From assembly GCF_011745625.1 (NCBI RefSeq), contig NW_027191479.1:300382-320381 (forward strand): a stretch of 20,000 nt of DNA, in the 5' to 3' direction. The first letter of the stretch is position 1; every line of letters starts with the position of its first letter. Below are positions 2,035 to 20,000 of the stretch, piece by piece. Position numbers and translations under genes: made by a program. The notes beneath the pieces are model-generated. The model was not told the DNA's origin. It was given only the letters and a program-made list of their open reading frames with translations, and did not search any database. The DNA is from Cladosporium halotolerans. Lineage: Eukaryota.

Positions 2035-4930
2035 ATGCAGTTCATTACTCTTCTCCCAGCTCTTTCCCTCCTTTCTGGAGCCTTGGCTCAATCCGCCTAC
2101 ACCGACGACAATGACATCGAATACACCAACGCCTACACCGACGACAATGACATCGAATACACCAACATGAAGCTCTCCACCGATGTGGGCAGCGGAGCCG
2201 GCGAGTTTGGCATTGCGCTGCCGCCCGCGGATGCCGACGACTTCAGCGATGAATACATCGGACGCATGGTCGTTCCCATCCCGAAGCCCGGCACCTGGTT
2301 TGGTCTCACACACCTGGCTGGAATGACCGGCAGCGTCATCCTCCTGGCATGGCCCAACGGGGAGGATGTCATGACCAGCTTCCGCTACGCAACCGGCTAC
2401 TCGTCTCCCGCTCCCTACACCGGAAATGCCACCCTCGGCCAGATCTCCAGCTCCGTTAACGACACTCACTTCGAGCTTACCTACCGCTGCGAGCACTGTT
2501 TTGTTTGGAGCCAGGATGGAACTGACGGAAGCCAGATCCCTAGCACAAAGGCCAACGCCAGGCAGGTCTTTGGTTGGGCGCAGGGAGCAGAGGCGCCTTC
2601 CGATCCTACCGATCCGGACAGCGCTATTGCTCAGCACGCGACCGCCAACATGCTCGCGCTGGGCATCGAGTCGGCCCGTAACGCTGCCTACTCTGACTGG
2701 ACGGCCCTTGCCACAGCCACTGAGGACCCTGCCCCCACCGGCACCTCCGGCGGAAACGGCACCACCAGCGCCGCTCCCACCGCGGTTGCCTGCCCGGACA
2801 CCAACAAGAACGCCAACCAAACTTACGACTACATCATCGTTGGCTCCGGAGCTGGCGGTATCCCCGCCGCCGCTAAGCTCGCCGAGTCTGGTAAGAAAGT
2901 CCTCCTGATCGAGCGTGGCCCTGCTTCTTCTGGCCGTTGGGGCGGCACCATGAAGCCCGACTGGCTCGTTGACACTAACCTCACCCGCTTTGACGTCCCC
3001 GGTCTTGACAATGAGATTCATGTCAACTCCGAGGGAATTGCTTGCACTGACTACTCCGTCATGGCTGGATGCGTTCTTGGTGGTGGCACTGCCATCAACG
3101 CCGGCCTCTGGTGGAACCCCACTCCCCTTGACTTTGACGAGAACTTCCCCGCAGGATGGAAATACGAAGACATGGAGCCCGCGATCGGCCGCGTGTTCGA
3201 CAAGATCCCGTTCAACGATCGCCCGTCGATGGATGGCAAACTGTACAAGCCCCAGGGTTACAACATTGTTGGTACGTATCAGTACTGAGCATTCGTGACA
3301 CATCACAGACTAATCCAAACTTACAGCTGGCGCACTCGAGGCTGCTGGTTGGAAGAACGTCTCCGCCGGCCTTCAACCCGCTGAGAAGAACCTGTCTTAC
3401 TCCCACCCGAACCACATGTTCTCTCACGGCGAGCGTGGTGGTCCAATGGCTACTTACCTCGTGGATGCCAAGGACCTCCCCAACTTCACACTCATGGTCA
3501 ACACTACTGTCAACCGTGTCATCCGTGATGGCAGTGCTGCTACCGGTGTCGAAGTCGAGGCTTTCCTCCCTGGTGGCCAGTGCGGCAACATCAACCTGGC
3601 CACTGGTGGCAAGGTCATCCTTTCTGCTGGCGCCTTCGGATCTCCCAAGATTCTCTTCCGCTCTGGCATCGGTCCCCAGGATCAGCTCGAGATCGTGAAG
3701 GAGGCCGAGGGCGATGCCATGGTCGACGAGGCACAATGGCTCGACCTTCCAGTTGGCAAGAACCTTGACGACCACGCAAACACCGAGATCGTCATCACCC
3801 ACCCCAACGTCGAGTTCTACGACTTCTACGCCGCCTACGATGACCCCATTCCTTCGGACGAGCAGAAGTACGTCGACCAGCGCTCTGGTATCCTCGCACA
3901 GTCTGCTCCCAACCTTGCCGCAGTCTTCTGGCACGACCAGGTTGGCCCGGATGGCATCACTCGTACCAGCCAATGGACCGCTCGCGTTGAGAGCAGCCAC
4001 GGCATCAAGAGCAACAAGTCTATCAGCTTGTCCCACTACCTTGGTCGCGGTAAGACCTCTCGTGGCCGCACCACCATCACTAGCGGCCTCAACATGGTCG
4101 TTTCCGACACTCCTTACGTCAACAACGAGAACGATCTTGCCGCCACCAAGGACGCCTTCCGCACCGTCATTGCCGCCCTGTCCGCCGACAAGCAGATCGA
4201 TGTCGTCGTTCCCAGCAAGAACACAACCCTTGATGACTACCTGGCCGACTACTCCCAGACCACCGGTGGCCGCACCGCTAACCACTGGATGGGCTCTTGC
4301 AAGATGGGTACCGACTCTGGTCTCAAGAACGGTACCGCCGTCGTCGACACCGACACCAAGGTCTACGGCATGGACAACCTCTTCGTTGTTGATGCTTCCA
4401 TCTTCCCCGGAATGATCACCACCAACCCCAGTGCCCTCATCGTTTCCGTCGCCGAGCATGCCGTCGAGAAGATCATGGCTGTCAGTGGCGGGAATGGTAC
4501 CGGAGCTGCCATCGAGGAATCGGCCGCTGGCGCAAACGCCACGTCCACTGCTAGCCCCAAGGCCCCCCTCAACACCGCTCCCGCCGCCACGAGCACTCTC
4601 ACAGCCGAATCCACCGCTCCGGCGGGCAACGCAACTTCCGCAGCCGCCACCGGCAGCAACGCCAGCAGCACCGCCAGCAGCACCGCAGTAGTCTCCAGCC
4701 CCGCTGACAACTCGTCTGCCCCTGCCAACTCTTCCGCCGCTCCCGCTACCACATCCCTTGCCGCCGACGCCGCTGCTCCCACCGCTTCTAGCGCGAGCGG
4801 CAGCGGTCAGGCCGCCAAGATGTGGCAGCAGTGCGGTGGAAACCAGTACGATGGCCCCGCCACGTGCGAGCAGGGCGCGACTTGCAAGAAGTGGAGCGAC
4901 TACTACTCGCAGTGCGTGAAGGCGGAGTAA
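2035..4930 (+). CDS. cdh: Cellobiose dehydrogenase (AA8 cytochrome + AA3_1 flavin domain + C-terminal CBM1), 946 aa, secreted
   Basis: Exons 2035..3271 and 3327..4930; intron 3272..3326 (GTACGT..CTAAT..CAG). Signal peptide MQFITLLPALSLLSGALA; likely heme ligands Met (AGMTGS) and His (IAQHA); FAD motif YDYIIVGSGAGG; TRFDVPGL and GCVLGGGTAINAGLWW; catalytic ANHW and TNP; CBM1 WQQCGG..C....C..WSDYYSQC. Confidence 0.96.
2095..2166 (+). repeat. Perfect 36-bp in-frame tandem duplication (AYTDDNDIEYTN x2) within cdh
   Basis: GCCTACACCGACGACAATGACATCGAATACACCAAC occurs at 2095..2130 and 2131..2166, identical. Confidence 0.97.
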
Positions 4931-5384
4931 TCCGCTTTCGCTGCTGTTGTTGATGAGCTTGCGTTGTTATTTACTTTCTTGGTTGGTTGGCTTTCTCGCG
5001 CCAACCGATACCGACTCTTCATTTTGGATTCTACCCTGTGACAGTACTTTTAGCGGAGCGCTTTATACCTTTTGTTGTTGGTTGACTTTTGAGGAGGTGA
5101 GACGTGGCTGGGCGGGCTTCTGATAGAGCCGCTGCCAGATTTGGGAGGAAACGGGATTGATACATACTCATCGCTTTATGTATGTTTTCGAAATATGACA
5201 TCCTCGACCCCATCTTTACTTCACTTGTTTCAATATTATCATTTCTCCTGATCGTAACGTTCTTCTCATCAAATCCGTATTTTCCAAGATTATCGTACGT
5301 ACATGGCTTCGTGCAGTAAATACATAACACACCGCTTCACCTTTCGCTCCTCACATCATCTTCACTTCAAAATATCAAACCGCC

Positions 5385-6699
5385 CTACTCCTTCCCCAAT
5401 CCCCTCAAAACCTCAACAGCATCCTCCAGCTCCTCCTCATAGACGATAACATGCCCGGCCCTCGCGGTGCTCAAATAGCTCATCTCGAAACCAGGCGCTC
5501 CGCCCATCCCGATTTTTCCTTTCATCCCTCCTACCAACCCCGCTGCGACGCCGCACACGATGCCGGTACTTTGCAGAGGGAGCTGGGATAAGTCAAGCGT
5601 GATGGGAACTTGCACGGGCCCTTCCTTTCCCAGGAGCACGGTGTCGGGGAAGATTGGGAGGAGACTGCTTTCCAGCGTCAGGGATGGGGAGTCGGTTGCT
5701 GTGAGAGTCAAGGAGAGGACAGTCGGGGGAGCAGAGGGAGAGGTGAGAGTTGTTAGGAGGGCGTGCTGGAGGATTGACTGCGTGGGCTCCGAAGAGGGCG
5801 TGCTGTCTTTTATGCCCGCGCAAGTCACTAGCTGGATGTCAGGGTCGACGTGTGGTGTAATGGAATGGGTTTTGAGGAGGGCAAAAGTGCGGAGTTGCAG
5901 TTCTGAGACGGTTGCTGGAGGCGGGGTGCTTGGTGGTTGGGGCGGGAAGTCGAAAGAGGACATAGAAGAGCCATTTCGGTGGTTTGGGTGCAGCAGCGGC
6001 GATGCTGGGTTCGTCATGGTGCTGGCACCAAAGCCGTTGGGGTCTTCGGAGTCGGATTCAAAGAGGAAGCCGCGGTCTTCAAGGGCGTGGATGACAGTTG
6101 CGCGAGCTTTGAGGGGGACCAAGATGAAGTCAGACCAGTAGCTCGTGATGAAGAATATGGGTCTGTACGGGATGTCAGCAGAGGTGATACCCTGGACACG
6201 TTGGGCACACTCACATTTTCGCAAGAGCCAGAGGGCTGCTGAGGTCGAGCACTCTTTGCCCAGCGTCGAGGCCCTCTCCGCCGATGACGATCGCGGAGTA
6301 GTCGTCCCTGCTTACCGTGACGCTCTTTTGGAGGTCCGGTCTCAGGCCTGCTATTACAGGCATGAAGAGATCGTCTGCTTGATCTCGCGGGCACGCGATT
6401 GAGCACTCGTCGTGTGCGATGGAGATGTTTACGAGAGGATGCCAATACTCCCAAGGCTTTTTGGGCTCTATAGGGTCGCCTTCGGCGTCGAGGTTCGTGT
6501 TGTGAAGGAGGAGTTGTGCGATTGGTTGGAGGAAGTGGGAATATGCAGACATCGGGATGTGGATCAAAGCAATGTGAGTGTCCTATTGTATGGTCAATGA
6601 CGGAGATCAGTATGCTGGAGGGACGACGGTGCGCACGAGAAAGCTGATCTGGGCGTTGAGTAGAGTCTGCGACTCGGCCATCATCATTGGGGAGTCCAT
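5385..6699 (-). CDS. CASTOR/GATS-like ACT-domain protein (putative amino-acid sensor), 402 aa
   Basis: Exons 6699..6637, 6582..6215 and 6162..5385; introns 6636..6583 (GTGCGC..TAG) and 6214..6163 (GTGAGT..GCTGAC..CAG); phases are consistent. Product MDSPMMMAESQTLLNAQISFL|DTHIALIHIP..., with ACT-type motifs GQRVLDLSSPLALAKIPIFFITSYWSDFILVP and LPLQSTGIVCGVA...MSYLSTARAGHVIV. Confidence 0.88.
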
Positions 6700-6845
6700 G
6701 GTGAACCGATGCTGCTGATGATCGACTTGAGAAGGATCGGTATGTCCGACGTGAACGTTGACTGTTGACTGACAATGGACCGTCCAACGACCAGCTTTGT
6801 CGAGAAATGGCTGTCGCAGATGGCAAAGCAGACAACCAGGGCTAT

Positions 6846-6908
6846 TCAGCGGTTGACTTGCTCGACAGGCAAAGGATAATCGGCGTACGTCACGGACTGA
6901 AAGTTCAT
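6846..6908 (-). promoter_or_regulatory. Candidate uORF MNFQSVTYADYPLPVEQVNR* in the putative 5' leader of the CASTOR-like gene
   Basis: This is the only minus-strand ATG between 6700 and 7440. It has G at -3 and 20 codons, and its TGA lies 146 nt before the main ATG in a different frame. That it lies within the mRNA is inferred. Confidence 0.55.
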
Positions 6909-7382
6909 GTCGCTGTAATATTATCGTCTCACTGCTTGGGAGTGCAAAAAGAAACGGTATCCAAGAGCGGGTCGCAATCAGCGGGGTTGCGGCAGGAGGG
7001 ATTCCAGCGGGCTGAAGACGTCGACCTTGATGTATGTTGGAATCAGGAAACCGTAGCTAGGGCAGCTCAGCTGAGGGCAAAGACGTCAGACACGGTACGG
7101 GTGTCGTGAGTATAGTCAGTGCGCGTGGGAGTGCAGTCCGCAATGGGTGGGAGTGCAGTTGGTGGCAGCGCCCGAGTCCGGGGAATATGCTCGTCGACGT
7201 GGGGCCTCGCAGGTGGCGGCGAGTCGCGACCAGTGGGAGCTCGTCTGCCCCTCGCGCAGAGCTGCAGGCGTGATCCGGCCGGGTCGGGGAGAAGTGACTT
7301 GCAGAGTGGGATGATGCGCGCGCCGAGAGGGAGCGGGTGATGCTTGGCTGTGAGGGCTGGGGGGAAGGATGAGATTGTGGTG

Positions 7383-7389
7383 ATATATA
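7383..7389 (-). promoter_or_regulatory. Possible TATA box of the CASTOR-like gene
   Basis: GTATATATCA on the minus strand in otherwise GC-rich DNA, followed by C/T-rich sequence typical of fungal TSS regions. Confidence 0.35.
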
Positions 7390-8350
7390 CGGAAGGGCTA
7401 CTATAGGGAAACCGGCGTGACGATTGCGATAATGAGCGTGCATGCGCCTCGCGTGTACTGTCTGCTTTCTGGTATGGCCCGGGTAGGGATGGGCCGATAG
7501 GGCGGCGGTATTGTGGGCCGGTTACCTCAAGCTTGATAGTAACGAATTCGAAGCGCCTACCTCCTCGGCGCACATGGCCTGGAGAGCGCATTGTCTGGTG
7601 ATGGGCGGTGGTGAGACGGCGTGTGCGAAGGCGGTGGCGGACGGCATGGGATGGTCGACGTCAGCAGCTGAACAGGCAGAACGCGCGCCAGTGCGGACAC
7701 GAGGGCGGGTGTGAGGCGATCACGAGGTGAAGTCGAGGAGGGGCTGGTGCGAGTGCTGGTGCTTCGCTTCGCGTGGAGGCGGCCGTGGGAGGCTTCAGCG
7801 CGGGCTGGCAGAAGTTGCAGAGCAGGCTGGCCCGAGTTTGGTAGGAGGAATTGCGCCGCTTTCCGGACGGCGCGCCGAGTCTACACGGCTTCGCCGACAG
7901 TAGCCTATCTACACCAGACACTCGCCCTATAGGAGGTCGAGTCCTCGACTCAACGTAAATCGCAAACTAGCGGGATCACTCTGTCGCATGAGTTGCTGCA
8001 TCGGCGTAGCCTTAAGGCGGCCATGCGCCTGGATGGATCGAGCAGCGAGAGTCTGCGCTTCATGCGTGCCCAAGGCCTGCATGAGTGCAGATGCAAGGAT
8101 GCGAGGGCGAGGCGAGCTGATCCGAATGCTTTTTCGCCGCCTGCCTTTGTGCGTCGCAGTGATGTAGCGTGGTGCCGTGGACTTCTTGCTTGCCACGTAC
8201 GCGCTGTGCTTGAAGGACGGTCCACGCAGTGTGGACGTCCATCTGCAGGCAAGTCTGCGGGCTCACTTCAAAGGCATCATGGCTCGTCCGGAGATCCACA
8301 TGACCGCTCATCACAGCCGCTTGGCCCTCGATTCGTGCCGGCTGTGGCAG

Positions 8351-8948
8351 TCATCCCATCTCACTCCTCCCAAAAGCCCGGTCCATCGCATGGCCCAGCT
8401 CATCCGCAGTGCGCACCTGCTCCTGCTTCTTTTTCGCATCTTCCTCCGCCTCGGGCTGGTCCATCAAGTCTACCTGCCCGCCTCCGACCGCCTGAGACTC
8501 CTGCTTCTTCTGCGGTTGTAGCAACTTGGCCTCACTGTCCAGCCACCCGGGCGCTTTCCGCCTCTTGTCCTGCAACTCCCGCTCCTTGATGCCTTCTTCC
8601 CATTCACGCACTTTCTTCTCGCCGCCTTGTCGTTGCGATGACAGTTGCGAGAGCAAGGCCCTATTCTGGGCCACGATGGCTGACGGGTGTGCTGCGAAGC
8701 CGCTGGATGATGTAACGTATGCCGGCAGCTCGGGATTGGAGGGTGCAGGCGCCGCATGGATTGATGAAGGAGGCAGCGTGGATGGCAAGGACGCGTAGTT
8801 GTGGGGGAGGGTTGGCGGCTTGGGCAGGTCGATGAAAGGGTTGACGCTCAAAGGCGTTTGCTGGAGGAACGGGTGCGCTGGGGACGGTTAGCGAGGTGAA
8901 ATGACCATTCGAGGATGCGGACTAAGGTGACTCACCATCGTCGTGCAT
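8351..8948 (-). CDS. Hypothetical protein, 179 aa, resembling an uncharacterised fungal family
   Basis: Micro-exon 8948..8936 (ATGCACGACGATG), intron 8935..8878 (GTGAGT..GCTAAC..CAG), exon 8877..8351. Product MHDDAHPFLQQTPLSVNPFIDLP... has a Pro-rich N-terminus, a coiled-coil-like segment and an RRKAPGWLDSE motif. Confidence 0.82.
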
Positions 8949-18456: not shown

Positions 18457-18539
18457 GGATTTTGAGTAGACGAGATCATTGTAGCATTAACCACCTTCGA
18501 GATATGCTGTAATATAGGTCATAGTAGTACAAGAGTTTA

Positions 18540-19901
18540 AGTCTCACCGGCTGAAGAAGCTTCTTTACCTCACTAACCAAGAACCTATTATAGCCAAATA
18601 CTCTTACGCGCGTACATATACCCAAGCCAAGTATACTAAGCTCGTACTATATGACTATCGAGATAGTAGTATACTTACTCTCTAACTTTAGGGTTTGGGT
18701 TTCGCGCTATAGAAGAAATAGATTTCTTAGGAATTTTTAAGATATCTATCCACTTTTCAACTCGGTACGATATATACTTACCCTACTATCGTAGATTGAA
18801 AACGATAGCTTTTTAAAAAATTAAGGTTTTTAGAGAATTTGAAAATATAAGGTAATTTCCTAATATAGTAATATAATTTCCTAATACCTTTAAGTAGGTA
18901 CTTAAAGTATTAAAGAGTAGTATAGTATCTTAATCTTAAAGAATATAAAAGATATATATAATATTATATAACTTCTTAGTATAATATCTATAACGTTTCG
19001 TATTCTAACTAAAATATAAAAATCTTACTTTAGACGCTTCTAGATATTTTATAATACTAGGTATTATAAAATAGCCTAATATAGTAACCTAGGGGTTTCG
19101 TATTCTTAAGAAAGTCTATATTATAAGAGAGTAATACCTACGTAGAAGCTCCTTATAGTATTTAATAAGTTCGATATTACGAAGCGAAGGTTCTTTATCT
19201 AAGTCTACTTAAAAGGGGGTAGAACGCCAAGTATACGAGTATAGCCCGTATACGCTTCTAGGGCTTACTCTTTATAATACCTTCTTCCTCTCTTCTTCTT
19301 TAAGGACCGACCGTTTTCTTCTAATATCTACTACTTTTCCCTAGTAGCCTTTATAATATAGTCCTATTAGGATTTCGTAAGGCTCTAGGATATATTATCT
19401 AGGTACTATAAACTCGTCTTACTACTAACTTTACTTTATATTATTATATAATTTTTTAGTATATAAATATAATATTACGTCCTAATCCCTTCTTTACGTA
19501 TACTATATCCTTATAATCGTTATAACTTAGTAAAGTTATAGTTATCTTTATATACGTAGTTATATATATAACTTTTATTTAACTATACTATTATATATAT
19601 ATCCTTTACTTAGCTACGTAGTTATATATTATTTATAAGTAGCGAACTATATAGTAGCTAGGGACTACCCTATAAAAGACTACTTCTACTTCTATTCTCT
19701 CTTTCTCCTTTTCCTTCTATAACTATAGTAGTAATAGTAATAGTACTAGTACTAGTATTCTTCGCCTATAATATAAATAACTCCTATATATCCCTAGTAG
19801 CCTCTATAGTATACTAACTAGGGTTTAGATATCTACTATTATCTACTATATCTTTTACGCCTAGGCTAGTATTAACTACTATAACTAGCTTATAAGTTTA
19901 G
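18540..19901. mobile_element. AT-rich RIP-degenerated repeat (probable transposon relic, family not identifiable)
   Basis: Abrupt GC drop, no ORFs and extreme TpA excess. By manual scan of 18901..19900 I found one CpA (19228) and no TpG, while CpG is retained. This is the CpA>TpA signature of RIP. Confidence 0.88.
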
Positions 19902-19975
19902 TCCTCGCCAAAAGGCAACGGAGGAGAACACTGATCTCCTCGCCAAAAGGCAACGGAGGAGAACACTGATCTCCT
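19902..19975. repeat. Perfect 35-bp tandem repeat (2.1 copies)
   Basis: TCCTCGCCAAAAGGCAACGGAGGAGAACACTGATC at 19902..19936 and 19937..19971, then TCCT. Confidence 0.95.
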
Positions 19976-20000
19976 ACTAACCCTAAGGCGGCGCTAACCG

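Follow-up and report, generated by a model that had tools for sequence, protein, structure and literature searches.

The window described here is a 20,000-nucleotide (nt) stretch of the Cladosporium halotolerans genome (contig NW_027191479.1, positions 300,382 to 320,381). Its minus strand carries a gene for a CASTOR-like protein, and the long leader of this gene contains a short upstream open reading frame (uORF) at 6908-6846. The peptide encoded by this uORF is under purifying selection across the Dothideomycetes. The uORF is probably a new translational control switch. With moderate confidence, it is read here as a conserved-peptide uORF that most likely acts in cis, through stalling of the ribosome on its nascent peptide near the stop codon.

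The uORF peptide and its copies

A scan of metagenome contigs with the family alignment yielded 63 loci. The main ATG was placed in 14 loci by an exon-1 motif, and L009 was added later. A recognisable copy of the uORF is present in 17 of the 63 loci, and 15 of these copies are intact. The encoded peptides are MNFQTVTYAEYPLPVEQVNR (L001 and L005), MNFQTVTHNHHPLPVEQVNR (L002 and L004), MNHQTVNVAEYPLPVEQVNR (L006), MNFQAALYEDYPIPLEHVNR (L007), MNFQTVTVEEYPLPVEQVNR (L038), MNFKNDTTHWPVGQEHINR (L018 and L027), MNFKNDYSHWPAGQEHINR (L029), MAFRYIYAHWPVGQESINR (L062) and MNFGFKNDISHWPVGQEHINR (L009), with a near-identical form of the last in L059. They share the core [YW]-P-x-[PG]-[VQ]-E-x-[VI]-N-R-stop. 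The stop codon follows N-R immediately in 16 of 17 uORFs (TGA in 13, TAG in two, TAA in one). The distance from the uORF ATG to the main ATG is 107-511 nt across loci. The initial annotation had described a uORF at 6908 with a purine at -3, and the window indeed has a G there; 15 of the 17 uORFs have a purine at this position. An in-frame TAA lies five codons upstream of ATG 6908.

A hidden Markov model (HMM) was built from 14 uORF peptides. The search space was all stop-to-stop open reading frames (ORFs) of at least 8 amino acids on both strands of the 63 loci and the window. The HMM has 14 matches with E <= 2.7e-11 (the window and 13 loci), followed by L015 (8.5e-6), L034 (0.006) and L035 (0.05). 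All of these matches are upstream of the CASTOR-like gene and on the strand of the gene. The next match is noise (E 0.64).

Eighteen loci group with the Dothideomycetes and reach at least 400 nt upstream of the LIHIP anchor. Thirteen of these contain an intact uORF and two contain a uORF that is intact after intron removal; one has a copy without a stop, one a degenerate copy and one, L013, no copy that could be seen. For L013, 383 nt of sequence ahead of the main start are available, and they contain no ATG whatever. The two interrupted copies, in the Pleosporales-like loci L015 (~2944-3075) and L034 (~1276-1450), contain GT..AG introns of 64 and 112 nt, respectively. The intron site is identical in both, after the first base of the Glu codon, and gives an apparent divergence past W-P-V-G-Q. 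Intron removal restores the same last six residues and the stop, and the unspliced form would yield a different, longer C-terminus. This intron is missing in L009 and L059.

Loci were named by the identity of their CASTOR-like proteins to named proteins. Two were assigned directly, L059 to Alternaria (100%) and L018 to Coniosporium uncinatum (95%). Others fall close to a named taxon: L015 to Paraphoma/Parastagonospora (93-94%), L034 to Kalmusia (88%), L009 to Ascochyta (83%) and L006 to a Teratosphaeriaceae species (79%). L029, L035 and L062 have no close named relative. L007 clusters with Zymoseptoria/Septoria in a midpoint-rooted FastTree tree of this one gene, from which L037 and L049 (in-frame stops) and loci with short matches were left out. 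By these placements, the uORF spans both large subclasses of the Dothideomycetes.

The initial annotation had proposed peptide-level conservation upstream of orthologues as a check, and its outcome is positive, with ratios of nonsynonymous to synonymous difference (pN/pS) of 0.04-0.30, well under 1. Pooled by the Nei-Gojobori method, the 20-codon group (8 sequences) has pS 0.664 and pN 0.156 (ratio 0.24), the 19-codon group (5 sequences) has pS 0.58 and pN 0.175 (ratio 0.30) and the 21-codon group (3 sequences) has pS 0.735 and pN 0.027 (ratio 0.04). Over the last ten codons of the 16 intact copies, the third position is variable in 10 of 10 columns and the second position in five of 10. Synonymous codons are exchanged within the uORF for Leu (TTG/TTA/CTA/CTT) and Arg (CGC/CGT/CGA/AGA). 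Indels are confined to the N-terminal half, and the length from the conserved Pro to the stop is constant. Selection is on the peptide and not on the nucleotides, and it is strongest on the last ten residues and the position of the stop.

This constraint bears on an ordinary uORF that acts independently of its sequence, capturing scanning ribosomes by leaky scanning or reinitiation. The uORFs of GCN4 and cpc-1 are of this kind and act chiefly through reinitiation kinetics, not through peptide sequence. Theirs are also long fungal leaders, with uORFs controlling how a nutrient-response regulator is translated, but selection on the peptide itself sets the present uORF apart. Such a reading would be suited by the presence of only one short uORF, by its moderate start context and by the strong main AUG that follows after 146 nt, and long fungal leaders with uORFs are known, such as the cpc-1 leader of more than 700 nt with two uORFs (PMC5487733). 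However, it predicts an unconstrained peptide. Instead, pN/pS is far below 1 with synonymous sites saturated, the C-terminal end does not vary, and an intron interrupts the uORF without breaking its frame. An ordinary uORF is therefore unlikely.

In an alignment of eight leaders, the uORF forms an island with a mean pairwise identity of 0.76 and 32 of 63 columns invariant. Identity is 0.22 in the 120 columns upstream and 0.21 in the spacer, where one of 180 columns is invariant; it is 0.63 in coding exon 1. So sharply bounded an island in an otherwise unalignable leader would also be expected of a nucleotide-level element (an RNA structure, a protein-binding site or an antisense feature) in which the open frame is incidental, and the opposite strand of the window contains an open frame of 100 codons. 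This explanation is very improbable. Variation is concentrated at third codon positions of the sense frame, the codons used for Leu and Arg differ at two of their three positions, the ATG and the stop are kept in 16 of 17 copies, and the introns break the nucleotide block but keep the frame. A search of 6600-7500 against Rfam returns only a chance-level match to sroE (E 0.23).

Purifying selection on a peptide suits a product acting in trans as well as one acting in cis. The 19-21-residue product could work as a small protein, for example as a partner of the CASTOR-like protein, and the mRNA would then be functionally bicistronic. The constant linkage of the peptide to the same gene is consistent with such a micropeptide. 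The peptide is very short, however, and its N-terminal half varies in sequence and length (19-21 codons), whereas the final 10 residues, like their distance from the stop, are fixed, the pattern expected of peptides that act in the exit tunnel. A trans-acting micropeptide is thus doubtful.

The leader and the downstream gene

The AUG-poor leader and the uORF are on the minus strand, a point on which the initial annotation was silent, so that a sense ATG reads as CAT on the plus strand. Sense ATGs start at 6681, 6684, 6687, 6699, 6908, 7443, 7575 and 7591 within 6553-7600. The initial annotation had counted a single sense ATG, at 6908, in about 740 nt upstream of the main start, and the counts and shuffles agree with it: 6908 is the sole sense ATG in 6700-7440. 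Its chance expectation of 9-11 was a little too high, the shuffles giving 7-8. In 5000 dinucleotide-preserving shuffles, 8.2 +/- 2.2 sense ATGs are expected in the 740 nt and P(<=1) is 0.0004; mononucleotide shuffles give 6.8 and P = 0.005. The antisense strand of the same 740 nt contains 16 ATGs, compared with one on the sense strand. The ATG-free run from 7443 to 6908 is 535 nt long, the longest on either strand of the window.

The only other 740-nt windows with one ATG or none are in 18505-20000. Depletion there affects both strands, the region being an AT- and TpA-rich relic that resembles a repeat mutated by repeat-induced point mutation (RIP), with few ATG and few CAT. Since the only rival is two-stranded, the strand-specific AUG desert is unique in the window. 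A tandem repeat of ~35 nt, in two copies, lies near 19903-19972.

AUG-poor leaders are found in eight of the 12 loci tested, including the window, when sense ATGs observed in the 600 nt upstream of the main ATG are compared with those expected. Low counts are seen in L002 (2 vs 8.1), L004 (1 vs 8.7), L029 (1 vs 8.2), L009 (3 vs 7.6), L018 (2 vs 5.2) and L034 (1 vs 3.5). The L015 leader has four (8.4 expected), three of which are inside the uORF intron. AUG depletion is a recurrent trait of the orthologous leaders and not a general one.

Contigs from four sequencing runs of close relatives (about 97-99% identical; not the strain of the window) were aligned to 5000-8000. None of the runs is recorded as RNA, and the contigs carry no strand information. 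The X1 and X7 contigs keep the introns and are DNA-like comparisons. In the X2 contig (7755 nt, depth 117), precisely 6163-6214 and 6583-6636 are missing, and the alignment is unbroken from 6636 past 8000. X6 record 15 (975 nt) skips intron 1, covers 6636-7320 and ends at 7320; loose ends of X6 at 6162 and 6215 coincide with exon ends, showing that X6 lacks intron 2 as well. Because coding introns are absent from the X2 contig and X6 record 15, both are RNA-derived. The uORF is contiguous with exon 1 in these spliced transcripts, which come from two studies of close relatives about 98-99% identical to the window here. Splicing of the uORF out of the leader or into the main ORF would have told against the initial annotation; in the X2 and X6 contigs the uORF lies within the mRNA leader and is neither removed nor joined to the main ORF. 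No canonical splice joint is present inside 6700-7320 in these contigs, and 16 of 17 copies retain the stop; a leader intron, or the uORF as an alternative first coding exon, was rejected on these grounds.

The differences listed for the relatives' contigs include deletions of 7 nt and 1 nt in the spacer of X6 and X7, at window positions 6757 and 6831. None of the listed differences is an indel inside the uORF. One odd X6 contig (depth 16.9) aligns only at 6215-6290, at 6845-6916 (the uORF) and from 7198 onward, with non-canonical joints. It may derive from a diverged relative, with the uORF standing out as an island of conservation, and it was not used as evidence.

The depth of X6 is zero in the 7323-7423 bin, which contains a TATA-like box, and a contig of different depth begins at 7479. 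The depth gap, the box and the contig end at 7320 would fit a transcription start site (TSS) near 7320, as a hint only. Were the TSS near 7320, the transcript would not include the next ATG upstream (7443), and the AUG desert would match the leader. A conserved 23-nt block at 7294..7316 on the minus strand, CATCATCCCAC.CTGCAAGTCAC, is located at the end of the RNA contig (7320), and it is the sole conserved block besides the uORF in the leader alignment. Its core, TGCAAGTCA, is 474-604 nt upstream of the main ATG in the window, L002 (~2895-2930), L004 (~2883-2918), L006 (~112) and L038 (~3034). The core is also found upstream in two distant loci, L039 (~2832) and L055 (~1556). The block may mark a TSS or core promoter, or it may be a motif at the 5' end of the mRNA.

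The range given in the initial annotation begins at 6700; the exact position of the main ATG is 6699, not 6700. The column of Met 1 in the window is the start in 17 of 23 annotated orthologues, with the pattern M-x-x-x-...-E-S-x-T-L-L-N-A, and the main start is therefore ATG 6699. Codons 1, 5, 6 and 7 of the main ORF are Met (6699, 6687, 6684 and 6681), and in several orthologues, too, two or three of the first seven residues are Met. Clustered Met codons at the main start might catch reinitiating ribosomes.

The three-exon gene (Table 1) has a modelled product of 402 amino acids. Pfam identifies ACT_7 twice, once split exactly by intron 2 across exons 2 and 3 and again near the C-terminus. 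The exon-3 translation matches 1172 relatives. Among the 120 listed, the named ones are nearly all Dothideomycetes and many carry the label 'CASTOR ACT domain-containing protein'; the closest named relative among the matches listed is Cladosporium fusiforme (67%). The family profile matches chains of human CASTOR2 (E 2.7e-8) and CASTOR1 (E 7e-7). Fold comparison used an orthologue, P0008, and not the spliced protein of the window. The AlphaFold2 model of P0008 (predicted local distance difference test score 84, predicted template modelling score 0.84) has human CASTOR1/2 as its top fold matches (E ~1e-16, target-normalised template modelling score 0.73-0.82), with aspartate-kinase ACT modules trailing by far. 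The initial annotation had called the gene CASTOR-like, and the two ACT_7 domains, the names of orthologues and the orthologue fold closest to human CASTOR1/2 bear this out. On the model, the label and the four-ACT-domain arrangement are sound at the level of the fold. A sequence search of the PDB has no match with exon 3 and only noise with the last 80 residues, and yields no usable alignment to CASTOR1 for the arginine pocket. Arginine sensing by CASTOR-like proteins of the Dikarya is left open in a survey (PMC11836306).

A small neighbouring gene is located at ~8350-8948 on the minus strand (ATG 8948, intron 8935-8878), and its product begins M-H-D-D-A-H-P. Small ORFs beginning with M-H-D-[AGV]-[QE]-H occur far upstream of the CASTOR-like gene in four distant loci, L044, L046, L058 and L063. 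They suggest a conserved gene order. The X6 contig over 7479-8000 may be a long 3' untranslated region of the neighbouring gene.

Table 1. Coordinates of the uORF, its leader and the CASTOR-like gene in the window
Feature	Position	Strand	Details
Conserved-peptide uORF	6846..6908	-	20 codons and TGA; G at -3; peptide MNFQSVTYADYPLPVEQVNR
Intercistronic spacer	6700..6845	-	146 nt; no AUG; not conserved
Putative 5' leader	6700..7320	-	~621 nt; unspliced; single AUG; 5' end hinted by one contig end
TATA-like box (TATATAT)	7383..7389	-	read from the sequence; 63-69 nt upstream of contig end 7320; putative function
Main ORF exon 1	6637..6699	-	21 codons; context CACCATGG; N-terminus aligns with annotated starts of orthologues
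Intron 1	6583..6636	-	54 nt; GT..AG; predicted; exactly skipped in X2 and X6 contigs
Main ORF exon 2	6215..6582	-	gene model, Pfam, orthologue alignment
Intron 2	6163..6214	-	52 nt; GT..AG; splits first ACT_7; skipped in X2 contig
Main ORF exon 3 to TAG stop	5385..6162	-	gene model, relatives, profile, fold

Known peptide uORFs and the proposed mechanism

To our knowledge, few regulatory nascent peptides are known in eukaryotes, and the arginine attenuator peptide (AAP) of Neurospora crassa arg-2 and yeast CPA1 is the main model in fungi. The AAP is the paradigm of ligand-dependent stalling at the stop codon of a uORF (PMC7038982). Like the AAP, the uORF described here is a fungal conserved-peptide uORF of ~20-25 codons that is alone in a long leader, ahead of a gene connected with amino-acid metabolism or sensing. 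The two differ in that they have no conserved motif in common; here conservation peaks in the last ten residues, with N-R-stop. By analogy, an AAP-type arrangement (a single peptide uORF in a long leader, with stalling at the stop) may be taken as the best working model.

The analogy does not extend to homology. The initial annotation had pointed to T-x-x-D-Y, shared with the AAP, and this resemblance dissolves in the wider comparison: the whole motif is present in one of 17 uORFs (the window), and the conserved part is a different, C-terminal motif, P..E..NR-stop. Asp is found at the aligned position in two of the 17 uORFs compared, those of the window and L007; E, H or R occupies it in the others. 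Asp-12 is required in the AAP, where D12N abolishes the arginine response (PMC7038982). Since the Asp of T-x-x-D-Y is not conserved, the uORF is not a homologue of the AAP. The gene downstream, moreover, encodes a CASTOR-like ACT_7 protein and not the small subunit of the arginine-specific carbamoyl-phosphate synthetase encoded by arg-2/CPA1. Even with the motif in the window copy and the arginine-sensor fold of the downstream product in its favour, a diverged AAP that stalls in response to arginine is extremely unlikely.

A second group of known systems comprises the uORF2 of human cytomegalovirus gp48 and the AdoMetDC uORFs of mammals and plants, in which the peptide, chiefly its C-terminal residues, arrests the ribosome at termination, in some cases in response to polyamines (PMC7038982). 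The fixed C-terminus and fixed stop position of the present uORF are similar. The sequences are not, the conserved Pro is nine residues from the stop here and does not adjoin it, and stalling is in the present case a proposal. Conserved-peptide uORFs (CPuORFs) of plants and animals have amino-acid sequences conserved across distant taxa and are often upstream of regulatory genes (PMC2075485, PMC5587730). The same operational definition describes the present ORF, which is in the leader of a mature mRNA and encodes a peptide conserved across distant taxa under purifying selection. It differs in being fungal, in being upstream of a CASTOR-like gene and in being confined, as far as seen, to the Dothideomycetes and their neighbours. 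The terms CASTOR, GATS and GATSL are absent from the main text of the animal CPuORF survey.

The uORF would begin ~410 nt into an unspliced leader of ~620 nt and would be the only AUG met by scanning 40S subunits before the main start. As the only such AUG, and with a purine at -3, it should be translated by most ribosomes. The nascent chain would contact the exit tunnel and the peptidyl-transferase centre, and the ribosome would be slowed or arrested at or near termination. The arrested ribosome would block the scanning subunits that follow and limit reinitiation at the strong main AUG 146 nt downstream. The arrest may additionally expose the mRNA to decay. The constrained residues are those that would fill the tunnel with the stop codon in the A site. 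Constraint is strongest on the last ten residues and the stop is fixed, and a cis-acting mechanism is therefore most likely.

Several observations weigh against the reading of the uORF as a cis-acting stalling peptide. The stop of the L035 copy is replaced by CGA and the ORF extends by 25 codons (~3310-3445), while L062, a close relative of L035, retains the stop. The L010 copy (~2941-3000) is degenerate, with four substitutions in the core and the stop changed to Tyr. AUG depletion is absent in four of the 12 leaders (observed vs expected: L035 7 vs 8.4, L038 9 vs 8.5, L006 6 vs 7.0, L062 7 vs 13.3). The leaders of the clade of L019, L031, L033, L032, L045 and L028, whose nearest named proteins are from Geoglossomycetes, are without the conserved island, and no shared uORF is seen in most of L039-L058, with L057 as an exception. 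Since orthologues of other clades are without it, the gene can do without the element. A single contig end supports the TSS, and the X2 contig passes 7320 to beyond 8000, so longer transcripts that include ATG 7443 could exist. All RNA-like contigs are strandless and come from close relatives. Conservation of the peptide is just as compatible with action in trans. That the uORF is translated, that ribosomes stall on it, that the main ORF is repressed and where exactly transcription starts are all points that we infer, which also counts against this reading.

Distribution of possibly related uORFs and significance

A second type of uORF, with a T-F-[YC]-R-P-P core and synonymous codon variation, is located 130-210 nt upstream of the main ATG in other loci. 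It is found in L016 (~3156) and L023-L026 (~3151), which are lichen-fungus-like, and also in L037 (~3157), L050 (~511) and L057 (~3327). Its tail past Pro-Pro varies in length. An inner Met form of this type has the spacing M-N-x-x-N-x-T-x-x-x-P in common with the uORF of the Pleosporales. By this spacing, the T-F-[YC]-R-P-P uORF is a possible diverged homologue of the uORF in the window. A more far-reaching proposal is that the uORF is an ancient, AAP-like arrest peptide that senses a ligand, an amino acid or a related metabolite read by the ribosome tunnel together with the nascent chain, and exerts feedback or feed-forward control on synthesis of the CASTOR-like sensor, with the T-F-Y-R-P-P uORF as its diverged homologue and an origin before the split of the Dothideomycetes and Lecanoromycetes. 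This proposal is speculative and is put forward tentatively.

No description of this uORF was found in the literature on CASTOR, on uORFs of fungi, Pezizomycotina or Dothideomycetes, or on nascent peptides, and six uORF peptide strings have no literature match; subscription journals are outside the coverage of both searches. On the evidence of its sequence, the uORF would found a new fungal family of conserved-peptide uORFs.

If the reading as a cis-acting stalling peptide is true, this would be a second fungal peptide uORF, conserved class-wide, and a new sequence with which to study how nascent chains are read in the exit tunnel. It would also be an experimental handle on the CASTOR-like proteins of the Dikarya, whose role in TORC1 or amino-acid sensing is unsettled (PMC11836306). 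Conditions that relieve the uORF block would point to the nutrient signal served by the pathway. The lineages that bear the uORF include major crop pathogens and rock-inhabiting fungi, and their gene models, which now contain the main ORF only, would improve.

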